A DNA stretch of 40,973 nucleotides, from UHGV virus genome UHGV-0256613. The stretch is one strand, 5' to 3'. Made by a program: the position numbers and the translations under genes. The notes under the pieces were generated by a model. The model was not told the origin of the DNA. It was given only the letters and a program-made list of their open reading frames with translations, and did no database searches. The stretch comes from a virus. Of the stretch, positions 1,580-40,973 are shown piece after piece. Each line of letters starts with the position of its first letter. Position 1 is the first letter of the stretch.

Positions 1580-2632
1580 TTATTTCCCCACCAGCTCGTT
1601 TATCTCTTTCACTGTCTGGTTAAACCGCTCTGACTCAAGCTCAACACCTAAGGCCCGACGCCCCAGCGCCATTGCTGCTTTTATTGTGGAACCGGATCCC
1701 ATAAAAAAATCAGCAACCAGATCACCAGGTCGACTACTGGCATTGATTATTTGCCTGAGCATATCCGCCGGTTTCTCACACGGATGTTTACCCGGGTAGA
1801 ACTGAACGGGTTTATGCATCCAGACATCGGTATAAGGCACGGAGACTGATACGGAGAAATAGCGCCGGAGAGATTTAAACTCATCCAGCAATTCAGAATA
1901 TTTGCGATTCAGTGAATCATAAGATGCCACCAGCTGGTGGTGTGGTTGTTCCAGTTGTTGTTCCTGAAACTTCTCTGCCGCTATACGGGAAAACAGTGCC
2001 TGTAACTTCCGATAGTCAGCCTCATTCGGCAACTGCCACTGACTGGCACCAAACCAGTGGGAAACCATATTTTTCTTACCTGTGGCTTCGGCAATTTGTT
2101 TTGCCGTTATACCCAGTTCGGCACGAGCATCCCTGAAATACGATATCAGCGGTGCCATTATGTGCTGTTTGAGTTCCCTTTCTTTTGCCGCATAGCCGTC
2201 ACTTTTGCCGCGATATGGCCCCTGGTAATGTTCAGCAAACAGAACGCGCTCTGTGGCAGGAAAATATGCGCGCAGACTTTCTTTATTACACCCATTCCAA
2301 CGTCCGGACGGCTTCGCCCAGATGATATGGTTAAGCACGTTGAAACGTTCACGCATCATGATCTCAATATCAGATGCCAGGCGATGCCCACAGAACAGGT
2401 AAAGGCTTCCGGCAGGTTTTAACACCCGCCAGAACTGGGCCAGACAGTGGTCCAGCCACTTAAGGTAATCTTCGTCCCCTTTCCACTGATTGTCCCAGCC
2501 GTTGGGTTTCACCTTGAAGTACGGCGGATCGGTAACAATCAGGTCAATGGAATCATCAGGCAGGGACTGAATAAAATGCAGGCAATCAGCGTTGATTAAA
2601 TCAACACTGTTTATTTTTACAGTATTTTTCAT
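1580..2632 (-). CDS. DNA methyltransferase (N6-adenine/N4-cytosine type, DPPY motif)
   Basis: 350 aa; motif [11 protein letters not shown] near N-terminus and AdoMet-binding FFMGSGST near C-terminus (beta-class amino-methyltransferase order). Confidence 0.85.
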
Positions 2633-3787: not shown

Positions 3788-4153
3788 CTAACGATCCATC
3801 TCTAGCTCAATTTCTAACATCATTAACATGCCATCAACTACACCTTCAGCCTTTTGCAATAAACGCCCAACCCAGCAATCAGAACGCCCATGTTTACGGG
3901 CAAGCGCCATAAACGTCATACCACCTACATAATAATCCACTAATAAATCGTGCAAATCGCTGTTGTTCTTTTTCAGGCGAGCCATGCATCCACAAATGAT
4001 CATCGCGTCATCGTCACAACATTGCGGGCGGGATTTTACTTTTGAAGGGATTAGTCCTTTAAATCCTGCAGCAATAGACGACCAAGTGACATCCTCGTGA
4101 TTATTTGCCACCCATGCCCCCCAACGTTCAAGAACCATTTGAATATCACGCAT
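3788..4153 (-). CDS. Q: late-gene antiterminator Q (QuuD / phage-21 Q-like)
   Basis: [33 protein letters not shown]...[18 protein letters not shown] matches recalled QuuD; GGAG SD before ATG at 4153. ORF track extends to 4168 (TTG). Confidence 0.85.
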
Positions 4154-4170
4154 CAACTTTCTCCACAAAA

Positions 4171-5166
4171 TCAGGCCAGCACGCCAATTGCCAGCGCACG
4201 ATCGATAAAACGAAATATCAGCTCCAGCTGGGAGCCATACTTCTCTTCAAATGCCACGGTATCCGCATGCAGCTCGTCGTGATGCTTTCTGCACAAAGGC
4301 AACACAAAAAGGTCATGCGCTTTTGTTCCCATTCCACCCTGACCGTGACCTATCAGGTGGTGGGGATCATCAGCGGGCTTTCCACAACATGCACACGGCT
4401 GTGTCTTAACCCAGCGCGTGTACTTTTCATTAACCCAGCGGCGACGTTTTGGGCGTAACATAAAAGACTCCGGCGACTCCGGATCCACTTTCAGCGCCAG
4501 CACCTTTTTCGCCTTATCCTGGATGATGCTGGTGGCAGGAACCGAAGGCACAAGGTCACTTTCCCGGGTAACAGACGGCACAACAGGCTTCGGTAATCTC
4601 AGTGCCTTACGGGCTGCACTTTCCGGTAAGGCATCCGCCAGATCATTACGAATCAGCCACCAGCACAGTTCCGGCATTGTCACAACGTGACTGTCATCAA
4701 AACCGAGATCCCGACGCACAACAGACAACACCCAGCGGGCACAGTTATCCGTTGCCATTGATTCCAGCCGTTCCGTGAACTGATCGCGCAGCTGGTTATC
4801 GCAGTGCCAGCACAGACGGATTGCACCCGGAGCGTGTCGCATTGTGGTCATGTTCTCGCTGTGCCAGTCGGAATGAGGCCACTGGCAGCCTTTTTCACGA
4901 AGTAACCAGCTTTCAAGACATTCCACGCCACCAGCACGACGGATCACTGCCTCATTGCGGAACACGGCCCGAACGGCAGGATCATCCGCCAGCGGTTGTG
5001 ATGCCGCCGGAACGGCACCACTGGCGAAAGATGAATAACGTTCCGGCTCAGGCTCCAGCAGGACACGCCCCTGCATAAACAGGGGCATCAGCTCTGAACC
5101 TGGCCTGAACAATACGATCCCCATACGCGGGGCAATTTCAGGGGTCAGTAGTGCTCTCACGGTCAC
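4171..5166 (-). CDS. DUF968 domain protein (YdfU-like) with C-terminal HNH-like Cys/His motif
   Basis: 331 aa; C-terminus [21 protein letters not shown]...CRKHHDELH; typical nin-region location next to Q. Confidence 0.75.
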
Positions 5167-5167
5167 C

Positions 5168-5977
5168 TCAATGAACGGTATCGAGCAGCTTTAACAGCTC
5201 AGGGAATCGGGATTCGAAGAAATGCGGCTGCGTCTCGCGCGGATTTGCGGGACTGGTGATGTTCTTGCCGAACATGCAGCCTTTCGCCGTCAGCGACCAG
5301 AATTTTTTGATGTTGTTAATCGCGGTACGGCTGTATCGTTCGCGCTGCTCGACGATCCCCAGCTTCACCATCTGGTGATATGCCTGATTAGCCGTCAGGC
5401 GGATACCATACTGTTTCAGCAGTGCACTCAGTGACAGTGTCGGGCGACTTGAGCCATCGTGTGCATCAGCAGGAGCATCAATGGCATAGCGCGGTGCCAG
5501 ATTCGGTAAGCCAACAGCCTCCTGGAGTTTCTGACAGGCACCAAGCACTGATGAGTTAGACAGGTTTAATTCCCGGCGCATAAAGTCCAGCAGGATCACG
5601 CCAGCCTGCATCTTGTCAGCAGCCTGTCCGGATAATTTTTCCGGTGCGCTGGTTACCATATCGAAAGTACGGATCACCTTCAGATGGAATGACGGGCTGA
5701 TCCACATTGCATAGGCATACACCAGTTCCTTGCAGACATACGTTCCCCGTTCATTTCCCCCATGAATCACACTCACCGGGTCAACACCCAAATTCTGGGT
5801 GTTGGTCAATTCATGAACAAGCTCAACAGTTTGTTGGCTGGAAAGAAACTTTCCTGGCTCCTTGGTTCTGGCATTTGCACCAGATGCTACTGCTGCGCGA
5901 TGCAGATCGTTCAGGCTGTAACGCCCATAAGCATCACGACGAACTTCAATACCATCAATGACCATCAGATTATTCAT
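5168..5977 (-). CDS. KilA-N domain protein
   Basis: MNNLMVIDGIEVRRDAYGRYSLNDLHRA... N-terminal KilA-N-like domain; GGAG SD before ATG at 5977. ORF track extends to 6010. Confidence 0.75.
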   Translation of the reverse strand: MNNLMVIDGIEVRRDAYGRYSLNDLHRAAVASGANARTKEPGKFLSSQQTVELVHELTNTQNLGVDPVSVIHGGNERGTYVCKELVYAYAMWISPSFHLKVIRTFDMVTSAPEKLSGQAADKMQAGVILLDFMRRELNLSNSSVLGACQKLQEAVGLPNLAPRYAIDAPADAHDGSSRPTLSLSALLKQYGIRLTANQAYHQMVKLGIVEQRERYSRTAINNIKKFWSLTAKGCMFGKNITSPANPRETQPHFFESRFPELLKLLDTVH

Positions 5978-5996
5978 ACTTCGTTTCTCCTCTTGA

Positions 5997-6386
5997 TCAG
6001 GCGGCTGCACCCGCCGTTTTCTCGTACTTACTGATGGTGATCTCGACCTTCCCTTTCGGGATAACCGGTCCCCACTCCACCAGCATTCTTTTCACCTGTC
6101 TGTCGTCTTCCCACACACCCGCGTGGGTCAACGCGTCAAACAGCGCCTTGTTATAGTTGTCCAGATCGCGGATCCGGTTATCCGGAGGAAACAACACGAT
6201 CTCCACTGCAGCAGGTGCCGACGTTGGTTTTGGCAGACGACGTAACTGCTCAACTATTGCTGCGCACGCCGCGCTCTGAAATTTTCGCCCCGCCGCGCTT
6301 ATCAGGCTCTTACCAGCAAATGCCCCTTTGTTGGGGTGTCGCCAGTACGTGTTCACGCTGGGCGGGAAAGGCAGGATCAGCTTCAT
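5997..6386 (-). CDS. rusA: Holliday-junction resolvase RusA
   Basis: 129 aa; LPFPPSVNTYWRH...DLDNYNKALFDALTHAGVWEDDRQV matches RusA signature (DLDN acidic catalytic motif). Confidence 0.85.
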   Translation of the reverse strand: MKLILPFPPSVNTYWRHPNKGAFAGKSLISAAGRKFQSAACAAIVEQLRRLPKPTSAPAAVEIVLFPPDNRIRDLDNYNKALFDALTHAGVWEDDRQVKRMLVEWGPVIPKGKVEITISKYEKTAGAAA

Positions 6387-6709
6387 ACTTTCAGGCCTCT
6401 CTCATGTAACCAGTGGGTTGCACGCAGCCTGGCGTTTTCCTCACCGGCAAGCAGTGAGCGGATAATCCCGACCGCCTCGCTGTCGTCGTCCTTCACCGCG
6501 GTATGAAGAGTGATACCCCGGGCCACGCCACGCTTTATCGTGATGACGCCTTTTTTCTCCAGTGCGCGAAGATGTTCCACCGCTGCATTCACTGAACGGT
6601 ATCCCAGCATGGTTGCCACCTCCTGATTGGTTGGCGGGAAGCCACGTTCTTTCTGATAAGAAATCAGCATATCCAGCACCTGCTGCTGGCATTGAGTTAA
6701 CGTCGTCAT
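6383..6709 (-). CDS. LexA-family DNA-binding-domain protein lacking the S24 peptidase domain
   Basis: 108 aa; LTQCQQQVLDMLISYQKERGFPPTNQEVATMLGYRSVNAAVEHLRALEKKGVITIKRGVARGITL parallels the LexA N-terminal winged-helix almost motif for motif; no Ser/Lys protease domain follows. Confidence 0.65.
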   Translation of the reverse strand: MTTLTQCQQQVLDMLISYQKERGFPPTNQEVATMLGYRSVNAAVEHLRALEKKGVITIKRGVARGITLHTAVKDDDSEAVGIIRSLLAGEENARLRATHWLHERGLKV

Positions 6710-7359
6710 GCCGCCATCTCCCTGACCAGTTTTTCCGCCTGCTGGCGAACCTGCGCCAGAAACGCCTCACCACATGCCTCAAGTTCATCGCGCCCGATGT
6801 AGCTGATTGCCGGTCCCTTCCAGGTCTTGTCGAAAACAGCAATAGCACCAGCGAAGAACGCTCCTGTCGGCACCTGCTTCTCATCCTTCGGGATAAACCA
6901 GGCAGGCAGTTCAAAACCAATACGCCCGCGAATAAAAGCAATATGGTCTGCATCTTCCGGCCACCAAACTTCGCTGGTGGCAGCTTTGATCAGGAAAACA
7001 TAGCGCCCGCCCTTATCACGCATGGCACTGGCATGCTTCATGATGTAACGCATGCCGGTGATGTATTGCCCCTCATGCTGACTGGCGCGGCTGTATGGGG
7101 GATTACCAAAGGCAGCACCTTTAAGCTCCGCAAGACGTTCTGACCAGTCATGCGCCAGCGCGTTGTCTTCCGCCGTGTAATACGCAGCACATTTGGCGTT
7201 ATCACCGTCAGTGAACAGATCCAGAACAAACGGGCCAAACAGGGTGTTAATTCCCCAGAAAATGTTGTCCGGCGTGCGCCACTGATCACCTACTTCCTTC
7301 AGTTCATGGGCTGGTTTGTTCCGCAGTTCCACCAGCTCCTGGCAATATTTATTACTCAT
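6706..7359 (-). CDS. phage Dam-family N6-adenine DNA methyltransferase
   Basis: GNPPYS motif IV; ATG at 7359 overlaps the stop of the upstream gene. ORF track extends to 7392. Confidence 0.85.
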   Translation of the reverse strand: MSNKYCQELVELRNKPAHELKEVGDQWRTPDNIFWGINTLFGPFVLDLFTDGDNAKCAAYYTAEDNALAHDWSERLAELKGAAFGNPPYSRASQHEGQYITGMRYIMKHASAMRDKGGRYVFLIKAATSEVWWPEDADHIAFIRGRIGFELPAWFIPKDEKQVPTGAFFAGAIAVFDKTWKGPAISYIGRDELEACGEAFLAQVRQQAEKLVREMAA

Positions 7360-7853
7360 TAAGCCCCCACGTAATTCCCTGAGAGATACCACTCTTCACC
7401 TGATGCAGCCCGCTTACTGCTTTTCCGTAAACACCGTTCACGACGTGCCAGAAAATTGTTTCGTTCTGGCTGGGAGTGGCTTTCACGGAATGCCGCCATC
7501 CACACCGTTGCAGCACGACGGTATAAGCCCCTGGACTCCAGTTCTTCCGCCTGGCGGGTCAGGCACAAAATCACCCGGGGATCGTTAGTGCCGACATAGA
7601 AATTGCGCACAGGTCTGGTTTCACGAACTGGTTGTGGTTCCGGCTCCTGCGCTCTCTCAGTCAGGCGTGGGAAATGTCTGCGTGTATCTCCTTCACAACG
7701 GTGAGCCACACGCCCACTCTGACGTAACTTGCTTGCTGACTGCAGAACGCGCTGCCGTGAGTAACCTGCAAAAGCATCCGCAATGTCTCCGGAAGTACAC
7801 CCCGGATGGGCTTCAATGAATTTCTGAACTTCATTCAAAAGACTCATGATCAC
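7359..7853 (-). CDS. hypothetical regulatory protein (possible PerC-like C-terminal region)
   Basis: 164 aa; helix-rich N-terminus; C-terminal LTRQAEELESRGLYRRAATVWMAAFRESH recalled as PerC-like; low certainty on family. Confidence 0.55.
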   Translation of the reverse strand: MIMSLLNEVQKFIEAHPGCTSGDIADAFAGYSRQRVLQSASKLRQSGRVAHRCEGDTRRHFPRLTERAQEPEPQPVRETRPVRNFYVGTNDPRVILCLTRQAEELESRGLYRRAATVWMAAFRESHSQPERNNFLARRERCLRKSSKRAASGEEWYLSGNYVGA

Positions 7854-8668
7854 CCCCTGAATCCTGCCGGGATCTGGCTGTAGTCCACGTTGTCGTAACT
7901 GGCTTTGAAGTACGGGTCCTCGCGTCTGGCTGCAGATACCGCAGGAACTTCCCAGAATTCTTCGAAATGACGATCCGGACCAAAGAACGTGACAGCCTGT
8001 TTCACAAATTGTGTGCCGCTGTTACCCATCGCAGATACCCAGCCCGCGTAGCGTTTCACACCTTCCAGCATGGTTTCGGGGTTTACTCCCTCATTCAAAC
8101 GGGCTTTCCAGGCTTTGAAGGCTGCAGATTTTGAATTGCCACCAGCACGTTTGGGATATGCCAGCCATGCCTGCTCAAACTCCGGAGAGTATTCCGGTCG
8201 GTTTGAACGAACTCGCACGGACTCATCAACTGATGCACCAACAGCTATTGGTTCATTGACTGGTTCTTTGACTGGTTCAAAAGAGTGACTGGTTCTGGGT
8301 GAATCTCCTGCACTACCCCCTGGTGCAACTCCTGCACTACCTGGTGAATTTGCTGCACCAGATAGTGAATTATTTGCACTACCCCCTAGTGAATCTCCTG
8401 CACCATCCAGATGAAGGAGATAGATATTACTTGAGTTACCTTTTTCACCTTTCCGGGTGACTTTTTTTACCAGCCCGGACTCACAAAGGGCCGCAATATG
8501 ATTCATCACAGAACGTTTGCTAATTTCGCACTGGTCAGCAATATGCTGGTAGCTGGGCCAGCACTCACCCTGATCGCTGGCATTATCAGCCAGCTTGATC
8601 AGAACCAGTTTTCGCAATGGATTACCCACTCGAATTTTCATCGCTTTAACCATCAGCTCCATACTCAT
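7850..8668 (-). CDS. replication initiator (O-like, N-terminal HTH) with iterons inside the coding sequence
   Basis: 272 aa; N-terminal HTH (PSYQHIADQCEISKRSVMNHIAALCESGLVKK); low-complexity Gly/Ser/Ala linker encoded by the tandem repeats; lambda-O-like arrangement. Confidence 0.7.
   Translation of the reverse strand: MSMELMVKAMKIRVGNPLRKLVLIKLADNASDQGECWPSYQHIADQCEISKRSVMNHIAALCESGLVKKVTRKGEKGNSSNIYLLHLDGAGDSLGGSANNSLSGAANSPGSAGVAPGGSAGDSPRTSHSFEPVKEPVNEPIAVGASVDESVRVRSNRPEYSPEFEQAWLAYPKRAGGNSKSAAFKAWKARLNEGVNPETMLEGVKRYAGWVSAMGNSGTQFVKQAVTFFGPDRHFEEFWEVPAVSAARREDPYFKASYDNVDYSQIPAGFRG
8299..8410. repeat. five tandem imperfect 21-24 bp direct repeats (candidate ori iterons) followed by an AT-rich stretch
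   Basis: Units GTGAATCTCCTGCACTACCCCCTG / GTGCAACTCCTGCACTACCTG / GTGAATTTGCTGCACCAGATA / GTGAATTATTTGCACTACCCCCTA / GTGAATCTCCTGCACCATCCAG, inside the replication gene. Confidence 0.55.
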
Positions 8669-8901
8669 GCTGCACCTCCGAGATGCTTCATGTTTTTTCC
8701 GGAGCGAAAGGCTATAAGCGGCATACTGACGCGGTAATTACGGCCCAGCGGTTCACAAATCACCTTCTGGCATTCACGGTCAACCAGGCTAACACGTAGA
8801 ACATGCCCTGCAGGCGTGGTGTACCACTGCCCAACTGTAGGAATTGATGTTTTTTTACGCTGAAGCAAACGGCAAATATTGAGGATCAACGGATTAAGCA
8901 T
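8665..8901 (-). CDS. hypothetical small protein
   Basis: 78-aa ORF overlapping both neighbours by a few nt (coupled arrangement). Confidence 0.4.
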   Translation of the reverse strand: MLNPLILNICRLLQRKKTSIPTVGQWYTTPAGHVLRVSLVDRECQKVICEPLGRNYRVSMPLIAFRSGKNMKHLGGAA

Positions 8902-10612: not shown

Positions 10613-11287
10613 ATGAAAACAGTCCATGACATCCGGCGGTCTAACGCCAGAAAACTGAGAGATGGTGTTGGCGGGAATTCTTCCTTTGCCACCATGATTG
10701 ATCGCGAGCCAACCCAGACCAGCAGGTTTATGGGAGATGGTGCTACTAAAAATATCGGTGACAGCATGGCACGGCACATCGAAAAATGTTTCGACCTGCC
10801 TGTCGGATGGCTTGATCAAGAACACCAGACAACAAACATCACAAAAAAACCTGATGTTTCAATTACTAACAAACAAATAACGTTAGTCCCTGTCATATCA
10901 TGGGTACAGGCCGGAGCATGGAAAGAAGTTGGCTATTCTGAGGTTGATTTGAGCACAGCAGAAACTTATCCCTGCCCTGTACCCTGTGGCGAAATGACTT
11001 ATATCTTGCGGGTGATTGGTGATTCAATGATTGATGAGTACCGCCCGGGAGACATGATTTTTGTTGATCCTGAAGTCCCTGCCTGCCACGGTGACGACGT
11101 TATTGCATTGATGCACGATACAGGCGAAACCACCTTCAAGCGGTTGATAGAAGATGGAACACAGCGTTACCTCAAAGCATTAAACCCAAACTGGCCTGAA
11201 CCTTACATTAAGATCAACGGTAATTGCTCTATAATTGGTACAGTGATTTTCTCAGGAAAACCAAGAAGATACATAATAAAGGCCTAA
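10613..11287 (+). CDS. cI: CI-type repressor (HTH plus LexA-like S24 peptidase domain)
   Basis: 224 aa; C-terminal autocleavage-type domain (VIGDSM...DMIFVDPEV...GDDVIAL); divergent from cro. Confidence 0.85.
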   Translation: MKTVHDIRRSNARKLRDGVGGNSSFATMIDREPTQTSRFMGDGATKNIGDSMARHIEKCFDLPVGWLDQEHQTTNITKKPDVSITNKQITLVPVISWVQAGAWKEVGYSEVDLSTAETYPCPVPCGEMTYILRVIGDSMIDEYRPGDMIFVDPEVPACHGDDVIALMHDTGETTFKRLIEDGTQRYLKALNPNWPEPYIKINGNCSIIGTVIFSGKPRRYIIKA

Positions 11288-12381: not shown

Positions 12382-13206
12382 ATGTCTCATAACTTAGACG
12401 CAACCGCAATTAATCAAATCCATGCCCTTATTTCTGCTCAGGGTGTTAATGAAATCATCAGTAAGATTGGTGCCGATGCTGTGGCATTGCCTGAGAATTT
12501 CCGCATTCATGATCTGGAAAAATTAAATTTAAATCGCTTCCGTTTCCGTGGTGCGCTTTCCACTGCCAGCATCGATGACTTTACCCGTTATTCTAAAGAT
12601 CTTGCAGATGAAGGCACCCGCTGCTTTATCGATGCCGATAATATGCGTGCCGTCAGTGTGCTTAACCTGGGTACTATTGATGAACCAGGTCACGCAGATA
12701 ACACCGCCACTCTCAAACTGAAAAAGACAGCACCGTTCTCTGCTCTGTTGTCTGTTAACGGCGAGCGTAACTCCCAGAAGTCACTAGCAGAATGGATTGA
12801 AGACTGGGCCGACTATCTTGTGGGCTTTGATGCTAATGGTGACACCATTCAGGCAACCAAAGCGGCTGCGGCGATCCGTAAAATCACAATTGAAGCGAAC
12901 CAGACCGCTGATTTTGAAGATAATGACTTCAGCGGCAAACGCTCCCTGATGGAGTCTGTCGAAGCGAAGACCAAAGACATTATGCCAGTGGCATTTGAAT
13001 TTAAATGCGTTCCGTTTGAAAGCTTGAAAGAACGTCCGTTTAAATTACGTCTCAGCATTATCACTGGCGATCGTCCTGTACTGGTTCTGCGCATTATTCA
13101 GCTGGAAGCGGTGCAGGAAGAAATGGCTAACGAATTTCGTGATCTGCTTGTTGAGAAATTCAAAGACAGCAAAGTAGAAACCTTTATTGGTACTTTCACC
13201 GCCTGA
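12382..13206 (+). CDS. YfdQ-like protein (DUF2303)
   Basis: 274 aa, same length and gene-order context as CPS-53 YfdQ; family recalled, not searched. Confidence 0.7.
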
Positions 13207-27895: not shown

Positions 27896-30612
27896 TGCCT
27901 GTTGTTCCTACTACATCCGGACGTCAGGTTGAGAGTCGTGGTGTGCAAACCGGTGGTTTTCAGACCTTCGATGTTCCTCAAGCAGGTCAGGTGCTGGCGA
28001 ATGTCGCAGATCAGTATGCGGTGGCATATGGTGAAGCCAGGCAGAAAGCGAATGTTGCATTGTCTCAGGATGCCATCCTTCAGCTTAATCAGCGCAGCAA
28101 TGAACGTCTTTATAACCCTCAAACCGGTTTTTATGCACAACAAGGCAAAAATGCGATTGGTAAGGGGCAAGAGTACATATCTGGATTTGATCAGGATGTG
28201 GAAGAAATAGCTGCTTCATTGACTGATGAAGCAGCAAGAAATATGTTTTTGCAACAAGCCAGAACACAGAAAATTCAGTTCAGTACTGGAGTTCTCAGAC
28301 ATGAGATAGGGCAGACAAATGCCTATGAAGATGAGCAATATCAGGCAACGAGAAAATTATGGATACAAAATGAAGCGGATGCCTGGAATGACCCGCAAAC
28401 TGCCACTTTAGCCAGAAATTCCAGAATGGTAGCCATTGCCAGATATGGAGCAGCCAGGGGATGGTCACAAGAACGCATTCTGGAAGAAATAGAAAGTGAT
28501 GATCGCAGTGCCACAGAAATGCGGGCGAAGAATTATGCCGCTGCTAATCCGGAAGGATGGTTAAATGGTCAGTTTCAGAAAAATGATTCTGGAGGCATGG
28601 ACATGCGTGCCATACGCCTTGTTGAATCAGGTGATCGTCATTTTAATCCTGATGGTAGTATTCTTGAAGGACCGAAAACATCTTCTGGAGAGAGGGCCCA
28701 GGGGAAATACCAGTTAATGCCGGGCACAGGGAAAGAACTGGCGGCCAAACGTGGCGTTGAATACAACCCTACGGACGAACAACAGCATGAAATGCTTGCC
28801 AGTGACTATGTAAATCAACTGTATGGTAAGTACGGCTCCGAAATATTGGCCGGAGCAGCATATAACTGGGGGATGGGTAACGTGGATAAACTGATCGCCA
28901 AAGTCGGTGATCCACGTAAAGGTGAAATATCAGAAGAAGAATTTATCCGAAATCTTCCATCAGAAACACAAGGGTGGCTTTCCCGATATAGAAAAAATAA
29001 AACTGGAATGGATCCGCTGACTATTTATCAAATAGATAACCTTGCTAATAGTCAGATAGAAAAGCAAAGGAAGTTAATATTAGAACAGCTTGAGCCAGCT
29101 ATTAATAACACCATGGCCCAGCTATATAACGGTGAGGTTCCAGATTATATACCGGCTCAGGAGACCATCATCAGGGGGTATGGAAAAAACGCAGATAAAA
29201 TAATCAATCAACTGGATATAGCGATTGATAACGCGAGAATATTCCAGGCAATTCAGTATTTGCCTCCTTCTCAGCAGCAAGAAGAAATGCAGAAAGTGAA
29301 GCCTGAGGTTAACGATCCTCACTATGCGTTAAAACTCGATGCTTACGGAAAATTGTCTGCATTGCTTCAGAGATCAAATGAAGCAATTCAGGCGCAACGG
29401 GATTCACGCAGATTCAATGAGGCGCTGACAATAGGTGAAAAATTAGACCCAAGCAACAAGTCAATGCAGAAAGCTGCTGATTACACAGAAATGGCGCAGA
29501 ACTTTCGTATTAATGATGTCTCCACTCATGATGGGGTTGTTCGGCTTGTGGCTCAGACTGGCATAATGCCTTCGCAGGTCATCACGCAGCTTTCAGCAGT
29601 ATCCCGATCCAGCAATCAGGAAGTGGTTAAAAATGCGGCGGAACTGTTTAGTCGGTTATATGAAACAGACAATGCATCTATTGGAAATATGCCGAAGGAT
29701 ATGCAGGGTTTTTATCTGACTGTTAAGCAACTAACTGATTCTGGCATGTCTGCTGATGTGGCTATCGAGCAGGCGCAGAACCTTACGTACAACCAGACCG
29801 ATGCTCTTAAAGCTCAATTGGCATCAACGCAGAGTTCAAAAGAGTACAAAAATGATCGCAGCAAGGCGATGAATTCTGCTGTCAGCAATATGGCGCAGTG
29901 GTTCCGTTGGGATCCGTCTGCGGATGACCAGACGCCGGAAGCAGCTAGATTCCGTAATGACTATCAGACGATGTATGACATTAACTACCGCGTTGCTGGT
30001 GGTAACGCTGACGTAGCGAAGCAAATGACCAACCAGCAGATAGCCCGCACTTGGAGTATCAGCGAGGTTAACGGAGAAGCGCAGTTTATGAAATATGCAC
30101 CGGAGGCGCTTTATCAATATGGGCCGTCAGGCTGGCAGGCGGCGCAGTGGAAAGCTGAAAAAGAACGGCTGATGTACGGTGAGCGCAAAGAGATTATAAC
30201 AACCAGTCCGACGTTGCTTGGGATCACGTCAGGTAATGCTCCTGTAGTTGAGACAAAAACCCCTGAGAGTCGTATTAATGGAGAATTATTCATAACCCCT
30301 GACGTGTTAACACCCCGTAATGGTGATTACGCCATTATGGTAAGAACTAAGGATGAAAATGGCATCGATCGGGTCCAGCCGTTTTATAACAAACATGGGC
30401 GTCCTATGCGTTGGGAACCATCACTAGAAGATTGGGAACCTTATAAGAAAATGCAGCAGGAACGGGAGCAGTACGAGCAGGAAGAAATTATGCGTGGACA
30501 GGCTATACGAAACTTCAAAGACAAGCATCGCGCTCTGGATGAGCAGTATCAGCGCCTGCATAACGAACGTATGGACAAATTTAAAGATTACTTTTCGTGG
30601 GGATCTAAATAA
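27895..30612 (+). CDS. internal virion/ejection protein with lytic-transglycosylase-like motifs
   Basis: 905 aa; segment VESGDRHF...GKYQLMPGTGKEL...AAYNWGMGNV resembles SLT-domain motifs. Confidence 0.7.
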   Translation: MPVVPTTSGRQVESRGVQTGGFQTFDVPQAGQVLANVADQYAVAYGEARQKANVALSQDAILQLNQRSNERLYNPQTGFYAQQGKNAIGKGQEYISGFDQDVEEIAASLTDEAARNMFLQQARTQKIQFSTGVLRHEIGQTNAYEDEQYQATRKLWIQNEADAWNDPQTATLARNSRMVAIARYGAARGWSQERILEEIESDDRSATEMRAKNYAAANPEGWLNGQFQKNDSGGMDMRAIRLVESGDRHFNPDGSILEGPKTSSGERAQGKYQLMPGTGKELAAKRGVEYNPTDEQQHEMLASDYVNQLYGKYGSEILAGAAYNWGMGNVDKLIAKVGDPRKGEISEEEFIRNLPSETQGWLSRYRKNKTGMDPLTIYQIDNLANSQIEKQRKLILEQLEPAINNTMAQLYNGEVPDYIPAQETIIRGYGKNADKIINQLDIAIDNARIFQAIQYLPPSQQQEEMQKVKPEVNDPHYALKLDAYGKLSALLQRSNEAIQAQRDSRRFNEALTIGEKLDPSNKSMQKAADYTEMAQNFRINDVSTHDGVVRLVAQTGIMPSQVITQLSAVSRSSNQEVVKNAAELFSRLYETDNASIGNMPKDMQGFYLTVKQLTDSGMSADVAIEQAQNLTYNQTDALKAQLASTQSSKEYKNDRSKAMNSAVSNMAQWFRWDPSADDQTPEAARFRNDYQTMYDINYRVAGGNADVAKQMTNQQIARTWSISEVNGEAQFMKYAPEALYQYGPSGWQAAQWKAEKERLMYGERKEIITTSPTLLGITSGNAPVVETKTPESRINGELFITPDVLTPRNGDYAIMVRTKDENGIDRVQPFYNKHGRPMRWEPSLEDWEPYKKMQQEREQYEQEEIMRGQAIRNFKDKHRALDEQYQRLHNERMDKFKDYFSWGSK

Positions 30613-35083: not shown

Positions 35084-36022
35084 ATGACGAGTATAGCAAC
35101 AGCGGTATCTACTATCAACGTGCCATTCCACGGCGCAGAGCTTTATGTTGTCAATCACAACGGTGAACCGTATACCCCAATGAAACCTATCGTTGAGGGA
35201 ATGGGGCTAGACTGGAAATCTCAACATAAGAAGATTTCTCAACGCTTCTCGAAGGGTATGGTGGAAATCACCATACCTTCTGCCGGTGGGGTGCAAGCCA
35301 TGATTTGTATGGCTTTACGAAAATTGGCAGCTTGGTTGAACAGCATCAGTCCAAACAAAGTACGCCCTGAAATCCGCGACAAGGTAATCCAGTATCAGGA
35401 AGAGTGTGACGATGTGCTCTACGATTACTGGACTAAAGGCCATGTAGTTAACCCACGCAAAGCTAAAAAGGCGTTGCCGGGTAAAATCACCACTGAACAG
35501 CAGGAAGCCATTAAACAACTCGTCATGAGTCGCGGTCAGTCTCTGCCAAAAGAAAAACAGGCTAAGGCGATGATCACCATGTGGTCGTCACTGAAATCTC
35601 ATTTTGGCTGTTCGTACAAAGAAATTGATGAAGATCAATTCGCCGAAGCGTTGTCTCTTGTTGCTCGGGTTCCGCTTGAAGGGGAGTATCTCCCTGCTGG
35701 ATCTGCATCAGAGAATGATGAAGTGGCAGTCAAGATGTTAGATGCGCTTCGTGAGGCAATTAAAACACAGACAAAATGTTATGGTTATCCGCTGAAGCCC
35801 GGCTACCGCAGTTTGATTCACTCGCCGTCTGGTGTTCTCGGCCTGACGGAGAACTCACTGCTGATGAATCTGCTGAACCAGTTACAGGAAGACGGGCACG
35901 ACGTATCGGGTGCGGCGGCGGAACTGACCACCATGTTCTGCTACATCGTCGGTGTGAGTAAATGCCTGCGTGATATCCAGACCCACGCGGAGTACATCAA
36001 CGACAAGGCAGGGTTCTTCTGA
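35084..36022 (+). CDS. ant: antirepressor Ant (AntA-type N-terminal domain, shared C-terminal domain)
   Basis: 312 aa; N-terminus ...MKPIVEGMGLDWKSQHKKIS...; C-terminal ~85 aa nearly identical to the C-terminus of the 37274-37966 protein. Confidence 0.8.
   Translation: MTSIATAVSTINVPFHGAELYVVNHNGEPYTPMKPIVEGMGLDWKSQHKKISQRFSKGMVEITIPSAGGVQAMICMALRKLAAWLNSISPNKVRPEIRDKVIQYQEECDDVLYDYWTKGHVVNPRKAKKALPGKITTEQQEAIKQLVMSRGQSLPKEKQAKAMITMWSSLKSHFGCSYKEIDEDQFAEALSLVARVPLEGEYLPAGSASENDEVAVKMLDALREAIKTQTKCYGYPLKPGYRSLIHSPSGVLGLTENSLLMNLLNQLQEDGHDVSGAAAELTTMFCYIVGVSKCLRDIQTHAEYINDKAGFF
35780..36022. repeat. left arm of ~245-bp inverted repeat (antirepressor C-terminal coding region)
   Basis: Reverse complement is near-identical by eye to 37274-37520 (a handful of mismatches). 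Confidence 0.8.
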
Positions 36023-37273: not shown

Positions 37274-37520
37274 TCAGAAGAACCCTGCTTTGTCGTTGAT
37301 GTACTCCGCGTGCGTCTGGATATCACGCAGGCATTTGCTCACACCGACGATGTAGCAGAACATGGTGGTCAACTCCGCCGCCGCGCCCGATACGTCGTGC
37401 CCGTCTTCCTGTAACTGGTTTAGCAGATTCATCAGCAGTGAGTTCTCCGTCAGGCCGAGAACACCAGACGGCGAATGAATCAGGCTGCGGTAGCCGGGCT
37501 TCAGTGGGGCGCTGTAGGTT
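37274..37520. repeat. right arm of ~245-bp inverted repeat (antirepressor C-terminal coding region)
   Basis: Near-identical to reverse complement of 35780-36022. Confidence 0.8.
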
Positions 37521-37966
37521 TTGTTCTCTACCTTCATTGCCTGCATCACTGCTGATGCTGTGGCGTTGGCTACCTGGTCGGCAACCATCTTTATGCGTTC
37601 TTCCTGCGGGAGCGAGTTTTTAATGTAACTTCCGGTGCGGCGGATCTGAGGAAGAACCTCACCTGTAACCCATTCAAGAAATCTGAATGCTCTCGTTCCC
37701 TCAGTCATTGCCTCTTTGCAACGCAGAATAAGGATGTAGAGACCTGATTCTGAAACGATGGATAGTTCTTGTATTCCACCAGGGGTCTGTATTGAATACA
37801 GCCCCTTTTTGTTCCAGCCTTTTTTATCAAGTTTTCTCGCTTGTGTAACATCAATATTCAAAGCATTGCACACATCTTTGGTGACAAACCAAGGTTCTCC
37901 GTCAATCATGAACATACGGATCTGGCAGGATGACTCAAAGGAAAAGATGGAAGGTTTGGTATTCAT
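37274..37966 (-). CDS. antirepressor paralog (Bro-N-type N-terminal domain, shared Ant C-terminal domain)
   Basis: N-terminus MNTKPSIFSFESSCQIRMFMIDGEPWFVTKDVCNALNI... (Bro-N-like); C-terminal ~85 aa shared with Ant at 35084-36022. ORF track extends to 38011. Confidence 0.75.
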   Translation of the reverse strand: MNTKPSIFSFESSCQIRMFMIDGEPWFVTKDVCNALNIDVTQARKLDKKGWNKKGLYSIQTPGGIQELSIVSESGLYILILRCKEAMTEGTRAFRFLEWVTGEVLPQIRRTGSYIKNSLPQEERIKMVADQVANATASAVMQAMKVENKTYSAPLKPGYRSLIHSPSGVLGLTENSLLMNLLNQLQEDGHDVSGAAAELTTMFCYIVGVSKCLRDIQTHAEYINDKAGFF

Positions 37967-38015
37967 AGCGATCACCTTTGTAGTTAGGTTAATCACCACC
38001 GCTGAGACCAATCAG

Positions 38016-38373: not shown

Positions 38374-38829
38374 TTGGGGGTGCCCGTGAACACGAAGAGA
38401 GCTACAGTAATGCAGCATTTGAGGAAATCAGAAAAAAATAAAGACCATGAAATATTGAGTAAGGCCATTGTTCGGGCTTCCAATAATACTGTTATACCTC
38501 ATGCTGAAGAGTCTGGACAGAAATTTCTTATTCGGTATTTCACTGAAAATAGTGCAGTTGAGGAGATTTTAAAACATCAGGGAGGGGAATTTAAATGTGG
38601 AAAACTGGCAGATTATGTTCGTCGTGAAACGTCTGAACAAGAAGTATATTATGCTGATATTAATCATAAGTCAGGTGTGAAAATTGTAATAGGCTATTAC
38701 ACAACTCCCAAAAATGTTATGCATGAGGTCCCAAAGATGTCCGTCGAGAAATCTCATGCAATCTCGCGCAGGATGTTTGCACGCACTGCCGAAGATATGG
38801 CTCAGGAGCTCTACGACGATGCTGAATAA
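38374..38829 (+). CDS. hypothetical protein, upstream partner of the YafO-like gene (start uncertain: TTG 38374 or ATG 38410)
   Basis: 139-151 aa; AT-rich; stop overlaps the downstream start by 11 nt (ATGCTGAATAA). Confidence 0.6.
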   Translation: MGVPVNTKRATVMQHLRKSEKNKDHEILSKAIVRASNNTVIPHAEESGQKFLIRYFTENSAVEEILKHQGGEFKCGKLADYVRRETSEQEVYYADINHKSGVKIVIGYYTTPKNVMHEVPKMSVEKSHAISRRMFARTAEDMAQELYDDAE

Positions 38830-39325
38830 ATTCCAGGGGTTGGTTCACCCTGGAATTTTTGGGAAGGACCCTGAGCTAATACCTATCAAAAACGCGTTCA
38901 TAGATCACTGGCGCTACGGTCATCATAAGGATTTCGGAAAGGACACTCTGTTTCGGGATCCACCGAAAGAAATGCTGGAATATCACATACGCCACGTTCA
39001 CGTAAACATCGGAAACTATACTGACAAGTTTGGTGAGAGCGGTACGGAACAATGCTGGAAAAACTGGGCGTCTGGGAAGAAAGACAAGACCACTAACAAG
39101 CATAAAAAGATCCCAACCAGTGACGTGTATGTGATTTATCTGGTCACATCTGAACGCCATGCCTTCCTTCTGGATTATTGGGATGAACCAGCACATAAGA
39201 CAGTAGAAATTGACGAGCAGAAGCAAAAATTAGTTGTCGAGTGTGACAGAATTTTGCGGCTGAAAAAGTTAGAATCCATGCCGCGCGATGCTAGTTTGTG
39301 GGACCCAGAATTTTACGACTGTTAA
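38819..39325 (+). CDS. YafO-family-like toxin-domain protein (putative)
   Basis: 168 aa; motifs GIFGKDPEL / DFGKDTLF, HIRHVHVNIGN and DVYVIYLVTSERHAFLLDYWDEPAHK parallel recalled YafO motifs (IFGRDALYDD, HIHLAN, HLVYCQGAFDEQAWLLIAILKPEPHK); AGGAG SD. Confidence 0.55.
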   Translation: MLNKFQGLVHPGIFGKDPELIPIKNAFIDHWRYGHHKDFGKDTLFRDPPKEMLEYHIRHVHVNIGNYTDKFGESGTEQCWKNWASGKKDKTTNKHKKIPTSDVYVIYLVTSERHAFLLDYWDEPAHKTVEIDEQKQKLVVECDRILRLKKLESMPRDASLWDPEFYDC

Positions 39326-39326
39326 T

Positions 39327-39350
39327 GGCCGCTTTCGCGGCCTTTTCTTT
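39327..39350 (+). terminator. rho-independent terminator after the two-gene module
   Basis: GGCCGC-tttc-GCGGCC followed by TTTTCTTT; same hairpin as 36074-36097. Confidence 0.6.
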
Positions 39351-39606
39351 ATGTGGTTTGTTTTCGTAATTGTTCGGCACAATAGTCGAGATGTGTTTGC
39401 AGATCCTGCATAGACATCTGTGAGCTGGTGACGTAGTTAATCAGTGCAGTCAGTTCGGCAAGTGGGCCATCGACATTAAATCCATCCTTATCGAGATCCC
39501 GGAGTAATTTCATCAAGTGCGATCCCTCCACCAGTGACCTGACGCCTCCCGGCGTGTGAATCCTTTCGGTAAATCCGTCTTCCAGTGGATAGTGATACTG
39601 CTGCAT
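39349..39606 (-). CDS. small protein homologous to the antirepressor C-terminal domain only
   Basis: 85 aa from ATG with GGAGAAG SD; PGGVRSLVEGSHLMKLLRDLDKDGFNVDGPLAELTALINYVTSSQMSMQDLQTHLDYCAEQL parallels the Ant C-terminus. ORF track extends to 39729. Confidence 0.5.
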   Translation of the reverse strand: MQQYHYPLEDGFTERIHTPGGVRSLVEGSHLMKLLRDLDKDGFNVDGPLAELTALINYVTSSQMSMQDLQTHLDYCAEQLRKQTT

Positions 39607-39682
39607 CTTATCTTCTCCATGCAATAACTGTATGTTTATACAGTAACAAATAATTTGTTTGCTATCCAGCACGTTTTGCAAA

Positions 39683-39697
39683 TTACCCGAAAGGTAA
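39683..39697. promoter_or_regulatory. TTACC-N5-GGTAA palindrome (copy 4 of 4; 7-bp arms ATTACC..GGTAAT)
   Basis: aATTACCcgaaaGGTAATa between the divergent small Ant-C gene and the tailspike gene. Confidence 0.4.
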
Positions 39698-39801
39698 TAT
39701 CTATTGGTATTTATAGTCTTTTTATCCATATATGGTTTTTCAGGTAATAGAATAACCAGATATGCGGCGCAACGGGTGCTGCGACTATCTGGAGATTTAA
39801 C

Positions 39802-40973
39802 ATGACGGTCTCAACCGAAGTTGACCACAACGAATACACCGGTAACGGCGTTACGACATCGTTTCCGTATACTTTTCGAATTTTCAGAAAATCAGACCTG
39901 GTTGTTCAGGTGTCTGATCTGAACGGAAACGTAACAGAATTGGTCCTGGATACCGGTTATACGGTAACTGGGGCGGGCACTTATAGTGGCGGTTCTGTGG
40001 TTCTTCCGTCTCCGCTTGCTACTGGATGGCGAATTACGATAGATCGTGTGCTTGATGTAGTGCAGGAGACAGACCTTCGCAATCAGGGAAAATTTTTCCC
40101 CGAAGTGCATGAAGATGCCTTTGACTACCTGACGATGCTGATCCAGCAATGTTTTGGGTGGTTCAGACGTGCATTGATGAAGCCCTCTCTGCTTGCAAAA
40201 TATTACGATGCAAAGCAAAACAGAATTTCTAACCTTGCAGATCCATCACTTGAGCAGGATGCTGTAAATAATCGCTCAATGCGTAATTATGTCGATGCTG
40301 CAATCGCCGGGGTTGTTGGTGGTTTTGGTTGGTTTATTCAGTATGGTTCTGGGGCTGTGTACCGAACGTTCCAGGATAAGATGAGAGACACCATTAGTGT
40401 TCGTGATTTTGGTGCAAAAGGAGACGGCATAACAGATGATACTGTAGCAATTCAAAATGCTATTAATGCAGTACCAGAAGGGGCTATACTTGGATTTTAT
40501 GGTGGTGAATTTGTTTTTGATAAGGTTGAATTGTTTAAGCCAATAACATTAGTTGGTGATGCAACGTTAATTCACAACGGATTTAGAATAAAATCTAGCA
40601 GAATCCGATCACTTTTATCTGGCGTTCAGAAATGCAAGGATTACTCCGAGTCTTCAAGAGCATTTTATTGCTATGCAAATGAAGACCAAAGAGATTATGA
40701 CGATATTCAGATTTTATTTAATAGATTTGAAGGTTTCTTTTACTCTACGGCATTTGTTGCAAAAAACTATTATTTGGAGAATGACCCTAATTCAAGAATT
40801 GTCAAAAACACAAAAGTAATAGGGTGTACATCAGTTGCTCCTGATTCTGTAAATGCCGGTCATTTTCAACATATAGGCGTTACAAATGCTGAAACATCAC
40901 ATAACTCAACTTATGGCGGACAAAATGCAACATCATACAACTTCATTAACCAGAATGGATTTGTAAGGATTAT
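39802..40973 (+). CDS. tailspike/tail fibre (T7-type N-terminal adaptor; pectate-lyase-like start of receptor-binding domain), 3'-truncated at window end
   Basis: Open frame from ATG 39802 (GGAGAT SD) to the window end: MTVSTEVDHNEYTGNGVTTSFPYTFRIF... then ...ISVRDFGAKGDGITDDTVAIQNAINAVPEG; not in ORF track because no stop is reached. Confidence 0.8.
   Translation, partial: MTVSTEVDHNEYTGNGVTTSFPYTFRIFRKSDLVVQVSDLNGNVTELVLDTGYTVTGAGTYSGGSVVLPSPLATGWRITIDRVLDVVQETDLRNQGKFFPEVHEDAFDYLTMLIQQCFGWFRRALMKPSLLAKYYDAKQNRISNLADPSLEQDAVNNRSMRNYVDAAIAGVVGGFGWFIQYGSGAVYRTFQDKMRDTISVRDFGAKGDGITDDTVAIQNAINAVPEGAILGFYGGEFVFDKVELFKPITLVGDATLIHNGFRIKSSRIRSLLSGVQKCKDYSESSRAFYCYANEDQRDYDDIQILFNRFEGFFYSTAFVAKNYYLENDPNSRIVKNTKVIGCTSVAPDSVNAGHFQHIGVTNAETSHNSTYGGQNATSYNFINQNGFVRI

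Follow-up and report, generated by a model that had tools for sequence, protein, structure and literature searches.

The LexA repressor of E. coli consists of an N-terminal winged-helix domain (structures 1LEA and 3JSO) and an S24 peptidase domain with the residues Ser119 and Lys156. It undergoes RecA*-stimulated autocleavage, dimerizes via an interface in the C-terminal domain, and is encoded by a gene under the control of an autoregulated SOS promoter. In LexA(Ind-), a head that is not inactivated by RecA* keeps the SOS promoters repressed. The isolated N-terminal fragment of LexA is still able to bind operators and to repress as long as ClpXP does not remove it; for LexA(1-84), which has no dimerization module, this removal occurs via the new C-terminus. 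The only characterized phage-encoded truncated LexA homologue is gp6 of the Bacillus thuringiensis tectivirus GIL01, a protein of 66 amino acids. Its target is the private palindrome GaCACAnnTGTGaC, which overlaps a -35 element, and it activates transcription from the late promoter P3 (PMC6182141). Here, we describe a LexA-like gene of the virus genome UHGV-0256613, which was analyzed as one stretch of 40,973 nt (hereafter the window). The gene (6383..6709, minus strand; open reading frame (ORF) listing, PF01726, PHROG 362) encodes a LexA winged-helix head and a helical-hairpin tail, and it lacks an S24 domain. With a probability of about 45%, we propose that the protein of the E. coli/Shigella clade is a RecA-insensitive surrogate of LexA, which would dimerize via its hairpin, bind CTGT-N8-ACAG, and re-repress phage and host SOS promoters during lytic development.

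The head shares the winged-helix fold of the LexA N-terminal domain, with about 50% identity over the gap-free residues 1-69 and with the same DNA-reading and wing residues. In contrast to LexA, it lacks the S24 domain, the Ser119/Lys156 pair, the autocleavage, and the dimer interface of the C-terminal domain. Its C-terminus is a helical hairpin of 35 residues that is unrelated to LexA, and a valine replaces E44 of LexA. Unlike LexA(1-84), the protein ends in ...GLKV and has the conserved hairpin. LexA(Ind-) can be compared with it as a functional analogy. The gene is phage-borne and lies in a delayed-early operon, whereas lexA has its own SOS promoter.

Like the window protein, gp6 is a LexA DNA-binding head without a protease that is encoded among the early genes of a temperate phage. 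However, gp6 has no helical tail and originates from a Firmicute LexA, whereas the window protein has a tail and the gamma-proteobacterial residues for reading CTGT. BLASTP of gp6 against the window protein yielded no alignment at E <= 100. Because no pairwise similarity is detectable, we regard the two proteins as independent captures of LexA heads from different hosts and gp6 as a precedent by architecture only.

A LexA head without a protease domain

The ORF starts with ATG and encodes 108 amino acids, and its coordinates and sequence are exactly those of the first-pass annotation, which had described a protein closely following the LexA N-terminal domain. This likeness was borne out and goes far beyond chance. 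Residues 1-65 matched the complete Pfam model PF01726 (LexA_DNA_bind, positions 1-65 of 65) with 69 bits, well above the cutoff of 23.7, and an E-value of 2.9e-19. BLASTP with E. coli LexA revealed 43% identity over 90 amino acids (E 8e-22), and the closest matches in the PDB, identified with phmmer, were E. coli LexA structures (E ~1e-15). The recognition-helix comparison proposed earlier was reproduced with phmmer and BLASTP, both of which aligned SVNAAVEHLRAL without gaps to SPNAAEEHLKAL of LexA.

The earlier claim that the autocleavage domain is absent was also correct. A Pfam search for Peptidase_S24 (PF00717) yielded no match in the protein, which ends at residue 108 and is followed by RusA, while the CI protein encoded in the window gave a clear PF00717 match as a positive control. 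The NCBIfam equivalog model for LexA (TIGR00498) reached only 70.8 bits, below its cutoff of 110.95, and the match was confined to positions 1-91 of 203. In contrast, the PHROG 362 profile matched over the full length (E 1.1e-59, residues 1-108 on positions 1-106 of 106). The protein is thus a member of PF01726 and of PHROG 362. It is not a LexA repressor proper, because the S24 domain, a conserved cleavage site (see below) and a sufficient equivalog score are all missing.

The structure was predicted with AlphaFold2 on the basis of an alignment of 21 family members. The mean predicted local distance difference test score (pLDDT) was 84, and the predicted template modelling score (pTM) was 0.57. 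Residues 1-68 (6506..6709, minus strand) formed a winged helix-turn-helix with helices at 6-22, 28-35 and 40-52, strands at 56-58 and 66-68, and pLDDT values of 79-89. Foldseek placed this head on DNA-bound LexA (3JSO) with a root-mean-square deviation (rmsd) of 1.0 Å over 68 residues and 50% identity. The linker, residues 71-74, was predicted to be disordered (pLDDT <50).

The first-pass annotation had stated that the protein stops after a short tail. It does end without an S24 domain, but the tail is not featureless. Residues 74-103 (6401..6490, minus strand) were predicted with high confidence to form a two-helix hairpin (helices 74-88 and 93-103, pLDDT ~90), which is conserved in the family; A93 hardly varies, and A97 and L101 do not vary at all. 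Its hydrophobic stripe is broad and comprises V80, I82, I83, L86, L87, A93, A97, W100, and L101. Because the pTM value was only 0.57, the hairpin looks like an independent module. A flexibly tethered hairpin of 30 residues with such a stripe would probably not be stable by itself, and it probably serves as a dimerization module that replaces the S24 domain.

Foldseek found no convincing match to the tail in the PDB, and full-length matches such as those to Rv1846c (2G9W) and MntR (6KTA) were weak (E 0.02-0.04) and had large rmsd values. Repressors of the BlaI/MecI and MntR/DtxR types, which dimerize via short helical domains, likewise combine a winged helix at the N-terminus with helices at the C-terminus, but they have no sequence relationship to the LexA-like protein, and the analogy is architectural only. 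Other database proteins contained two tandem LexA_DNA_bind domains in single chains of 140-220 amino acids, and further proteins of 69-78 amino acids were bare heads without a tail (P0132, P0133, P0152, P0156, P0159, P0163). Two LexA heads may therefore be supplied without an S24 dimer in several independent ways.

DNA-reading residues and candidate SOS boxes

The recognition helix comprises residues 40-52 (VNAAVEHLRALEK; 6554..6592, minus strand), as deduced from the alignments. In LexA, S39, N41, A42, and E45 are the residues that primarily read CTGT, according to a review of LexA-DNA structures (PMC11442139), and an older summary lists also E44 among the DNA-contacting residues (PMC3091678). 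The window protein retains S39, which precedes the helix, and N41, A42, and E45 within it at numbering identical to that of LexA, and residues 1-69 contain no insertions or deletions relative to LexA. The wing residues G61, R64, G65, and I66 are retained as well and are invariant or nearly invariant in the family. Because all four base-reading residues and the wing have been kept, a CTGT half-site is the best prediction for the target of the window protein. Zhang, Pigli and Rice reportedly found in 2010 that the two wings of bound LexA share the central minor groove, and a contact between the wings is said to have been proposed to set the half-site spacing. If this contact fixes the spacing, a head-only protein would favor the same 16-bp geometry.

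We searched for SOS boxes with a position weight matrix (PWM) that was built from 22 E. coli boxes, using 50 shuffled windows as a control. The shuffled windows had a mean maximum score of 12.5, and the largest score was 19.3. Two boxes in the window exceeded every shuffle. The first, AACTGTATGTTTATACAGTA (39626..39645), is a near-consensus box 20 bp upstream of the ant start codon with a score of 25.6-26.2, which equals the best training boxes. The second, CACTGTTTATTTTTACAGTA (2605..2624; score 22.1-22.7), lies within the first ten codons of an N6/N4 DNA methyltransferase gene of the late region (1580-2632, minus strand; PF01555). The exact sequence CTGT-N8-ACAG occurred five times in the window, compared with an expectation of about 0.5. 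Among 256 tetramer palindromes at spacing 8, CTGT ranked first with a nominal p-value of 0.0014 that was not significant after correction. No other spacing of CTGT/ACAG palindromes from 0 to 20 was enriched in the window and in six related early regions.

The ant gene (39349..39606, minus strand; tblastn, phrog_450 and weakly phrog_1760) encodes an antirepressor homologue of 85 amino acids of the SPC32H/epsilon15/phiV10 type. It is 88% identical to the proteins of the Salmonella phages SPC32H and SPC32N labelled 'ant: anti-repressor protein' (tblastn). In the SPC32H system, control of ant by LexA was reportedly shown by Kim and Ryu in 2013. The methylase box is identical in SfV, cdtI, Stx2c_PV98-693, and mEp460. 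This recurrence is not independent evidence, because the four phages share the whole mosaic block. In a census that compared four whole genomes containing the LexA-like gene with lambda, which lacks it, no SOS box with a score of at least 16 was found in lambda.

Some additional observations concern SOS boxes and repressors. The window encodes, separate from the LexA-like gene, a CI-type prophage repressor with an S24 peptidase domain (10613..11287, plus strand; PF00717, E 1.5e-26; phrog_4), which is the cleavable repressor of this phage. The phage thus combines two induction strategies in a mosaic, with a putative LexA-controlled antirepressor on the one hand and an S24-type CI on the other. 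Ant-like domains (35780-36007, plus strand, and 37289-37522, minus strand) with 40-42% identity to the small Ant are also found at the ends of two larger ORFs (35084-36022 and 37274-38011, respectively), so that the phage has three such domains; no SOS box was found before these two ORFs. The late methylase may be a LexA-controlled moron, or its SOS box may be an internal operator. Near-perfect SOS boxes were present within the coding sequences of S24-type cI genes of mEp460 (12522-12541) and of a second phage (L003, 836-855), with scores of 25.5 and 27.0, respectively, and about 165-210 bp from the gene starts. A prophage with a non-S24 repressor (L007/L008) contains an inserted RNase-toxin/immunity cassette, and an SOS box (5560-5579, score 20.8) separates this cassette from a small gene, which is followed by the LexA-like gene. 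In this prophage, the LexA-like gene may itself be SOS-controlled or autoregulated.

Operon, selection and distribution

The first-pass annotation had placed the gene in a nin-like region beside Dam and RusA, and this location proved to be right. Upstream lies the gene for a Dam-family N6-adenine methyltransferase (6706..7359, minus strand; PF05869, E 1e-45; mEp460 annotation), the stop codon of which overlaps the LexA-like start codon in an ATGA. A second ATGA joins the LexA-like stop codon to the start codon of the downstream gene, which encodes the Holliday-junction resolvase RusA (5997..6386, minus strand). GGAG precedes the start of the LexA-like gene. The gene order of the operon, all on the minus strand, is replication protein (7850-8668), PerC/YfdN-like activator (7359-7853), Dam, LexA-like protein, RusA, KilA-N protein (5168-6010), DUF968/HNH-like protein (4171-5166), and Q antiterminator (3788-4168), the last three of which were identified by Pfam and PHROG matches. 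A consensus scan of positions 4000-8900 revealed no promoter-like site on the strand of the LexA-like gene. Because of the ATGA overlaps on both sides and the lack of a promoter-like site, we assign the gene to the early-right operon, where it is translationally coupled between Dam and RusA. From this position, we infer that it would be expressed only in lytic development and be silent in the repressed prophage.

The database record of SfV (L016) annotates a putative -35/-10 dam promoter (29523-29549) inside orf40. If it is real, the expression of Dam, the LexA-like protein and RusA of SfV would not have to depend on the main early promoter. A consensus scan found no equivalent in the window. 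Fusion proteins of Dam and the LexA-like protein (P0022, P0092, P0098; 179-185 amino acids) recur in databases, including one cluster with seven members, and probably arise by frameshifts at the ATGA overlap.

The ratio of nonsynonymous to synonymous substitution rates (dN/dS) of the LexA-like gene was 0.05-0.12 in comparisons with the SfV, cdtI, and mEp460 copies, and head and tail were both constrained. The length and the tail are retained in relatives down to 40% identity. The gene is functional and under purifying selection.

Megablast detected the gene in 2233 of 5426 complete E. coli genomes and at full length in 2223 of them (~41%). These copies are mostly 95-99% identical, number up to four per genome, and are labelled 'LexA family transcriptional regulator' by PGAP. 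The identical protein is encoded on at least 1000 contigs. Proteins with 95-100% identity are found in about 50 phage records, including SfV (orf42), SfII, SfIV, mEp460, cdtI, and 15 Stx2c-converting phages (Stx, Shiga toxin). These homologues belong to the same family, PHROG 362, have the same length and the same position between Dam and RusA, and do not differ materially from the window protein. The mEp460 record carries the label 'LexA DNA binding domain protein'; labels such as 'transcriptional repressor' or 'LexA repressor' on PHROG 362 proteins are homology-based annotation. Full-text literature searches yielded only catalogue mentions, e.g. as pham 237 in an Stx-phage survey, and neither a functional study of the family nor an experiment behind these labels. 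The gene is thus not new, and its sequence and a homology-based label are already public.

Divergent members with 40-65% identity occupy the same nin-like position in Citrobacter and Hafnia prophages, in other assemblies and in metagenome runs. DUF968 and Q are always in their vicinity, and RusA usually follows directly downstream. Dam is present in some of them only. The nin-like position near RusA, DUF968, and Q is accordingly conserved between the window, mEp460, SfV, cdtI, and these relatives. RusA is no more than a few genes away from the LexA-like gene in almost every context examined and mostly comes directly downstream; it is absent in the Klebsiella phage ST846-OXA48phi9.1 and located upstream in the Edwardsiella phage EPP-1.

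The gene was present in 15 records named Stx2c-converting phage, but in 0 of 124 records named Stx2a-converting and in 0 of 47 named Stx1a-converting that share the lysis region. Because of this presence in Stx2c-named records and absence from the Stx2a- and Stx1a-named ones, the gene tracks the Stx2c phage lineage. The window genome itself is a mosaic of an SfV/mEp460-like early, nin and lysis region and an epsilon15/phiV10-like structural and tailspike module, and its right end (38500-40973) is 100% identical to the Escherichia phage EC.W1-9. Membership in a defence system was considered and rejected: PADLOC gave only a marginal match to a CARF-related winged helix (E 3.6e-4), which was judged to be non-specific.

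Competing explanations and consequences

For a RecA-insensitive LexA surrogate, we infer dimerization via the tail, binding to SOS boxes, the timing of expression and a repressive outcome as follows. The winged-helix head would read CTGT half-sites, and the short flexible linker would join it to the hairpin, which would take over dimerization from the S24 domain. The protein would appear only upon prophage induction or infection, together with the other delayed-early genes of the right operon. After SOS induction, it would therefore be present when the host LexA has already been cleaved, and by binding to CTGT-N8-ACAG it would re-impose a repression that RecA* cannot lift. Within the phage, the candidate targets are the boxes of the ant promoter and at the beginning of the late methylase gene; by the same specificity, the protein would also act on the SOS promoters of the host.

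Several results weigh against this proposal. Host LexA alone accounts equally well for the SOS boxes that are present, and therefore the boxes in the window are candidate targets and not proof. Several relatives (L004, L009, L013) have no SOS box within about 12 kb of the gene. No member of the short family has an acidic residue at position 44, where V, A, F, T, Y, or L is found instead. In 5 of 10 divergent lineages, one or more of the four base-reading residues are altered; the changes are A42T+E45G, A42G, E45D, N41Y, A42T+E45I, and E45L, and the variant helix motifs include NTIAG, NTVFI, NAVLL, and YAAYE. Such alterations are unexpected if the conserved task is binding to the invariant SOS boxes of the host. 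In Citrobacter, the helix RSVN-TIAG-HLRAL (P0086) is encoded within the same cassette of PerC, LexA-like protein, RusA, KilA-N, DUF968, and Q. Such a change of the helix, with the flanks conserved, resembles a switch of specificity together with an operator on the phage, and not faithful recognition of invariant host boxes. Lastly, gp6, the sole characterized phage protein with a LexA head, uses a private palindrome and activates transcription.

The same results feed the strongest competing explanation, namely that the captured LexA head has drifted to an operator of its own and, similar to gp6 at P3, acts on a phage promoter as an activator or a repressor, e.g. to time late, recombination or moron genes. 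The precedent of gp6, the family-wide change at position 44, the relatives without a nearby SOS box, and the rewritten helix between fixed flanks, which is typical of specificity switching with a co-evolving operator, all fit a private regulator. However, neither the wing nor any of the four CTGT-reading residues has been lost from the window protein, and gp6, which has no detectable BLASTP similarity to it, serves as an analogy only. No alternative palindrome or CTGT spacing was enriched in the window or the six related early regions, an inverted-repeat scan of the late-promoter region yielded no candidate operator, and no palindrome in the Citrobacter variant (L013) co-varied convincingly with its rewritten helix. 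The motif scans also revealed no enriched non-SOS palindrome, although such scans cannot exclude one. Taken together, we consider a private transcription factor somewhat unlikely.

Clearly less probable is a role outside transcription, in which the protein would be a DNA-binding accessory of the recombination or nin module with RusA and the HNH-like DUF968 protein and would, for example, target or modulate junction processing. The coupling to RusA in the window, the vicinity of RusA in nearly all contexts down to 40% identity, and the constant proximity of DUF968 would agree with this role. However, the linkage is not universal, as ST846-OXA48phi9.1 and EPP-1 exemplify, and module inheritance can also explain the synteny. 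Moreover, sequence-reading residues are conserved that would be needless for structure-specific binding. One protein fusing a LexA head to the HNH region of DUF968 (P0158) was found and rejected as a Rosetta-stone link; since it is a single sequence on one contig from a degraded prophage, it was treated as a deletion artefact.

It is highly improbable that the tail acts as a pseudo-substrate. In this role, it would either occupy the S24 active site of host LexA or of the phage CI and thereby prevent cleavage, or itself undergo cleavage in trans. The idea stems from the alignment of Leu-Leu-Ala-Gly-Glu in the tail with the LexA cleavage site Val-Ala-Ala-Gly-Glu; in phmmer and BLASTP alignments (residues 79-90 versus LexA 75-86), Ala88-Gly89 corresponds to Ala84-Gly85 of LexA. 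However, this pair is AN, AK, or VG in close relatives and is replaced by unrelated pairs in distant ones. It also lies inside the confidently predicted alpha-helix of the hairpin, whereas the cleavage region of LexA is a strand-loop. A cleavage or pseudo-substrate site was therefore rejected. Finally, a decaying, functionless remnant of a captured lexA, which a truncated host-gene homologue with rare, singleton frameshifted variants might suggest, is effectively refuted by the dN/dS values in head and tail, the conservation of length and tail down to 40% identity, and the intact copies, up to four each, in about 41% of the complete E. coli genomes.

A farther-reaching consequence of a RecA-proof surrogate, which prophages in about 41% of E. 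coli genomes and most Stx2c phages would encode, seems unlikely to us. The protein might close the SOS window inside the induced or infected cell and re-repress host SOS genes as well as LexA-controlled antirepressors, colicins, and toxins of co-resident elements. This would favor its own phage and reshape SOS dynamics, cross-induction, and possibly the output of Shiga toxin. A partial precedent is gp7 of GIL01, which acts together with LexA to suppress a co-resident prophage (PMC9700832). If true, closing of the SOS window would represent an uncharacterized layer of SOS control.

If the LexA-like protein binds SOS boxes, a large share of the E. coli, Shigella, and Salmonella strains hold a second, uncleavable LexA that is switched on in the lytic growth of the prophage. 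The duration of SOS gene expression after DNA damage or antibiotic treatment, the winner among resident prophages and perhaps the release of Stx2c toxin would then be affected. If it uses a private operator instead, it would represent, after gp6 of GIL01, a second, independent conversion of a captured LexA head into a phage's own regulator. The LexA-like protein is small, its candidate sites are defined, and genetic systems exist for SfV and mEp460. It is thus a widespread candidate for modulating the SOS response and prophage competition, and one that is easy to test.

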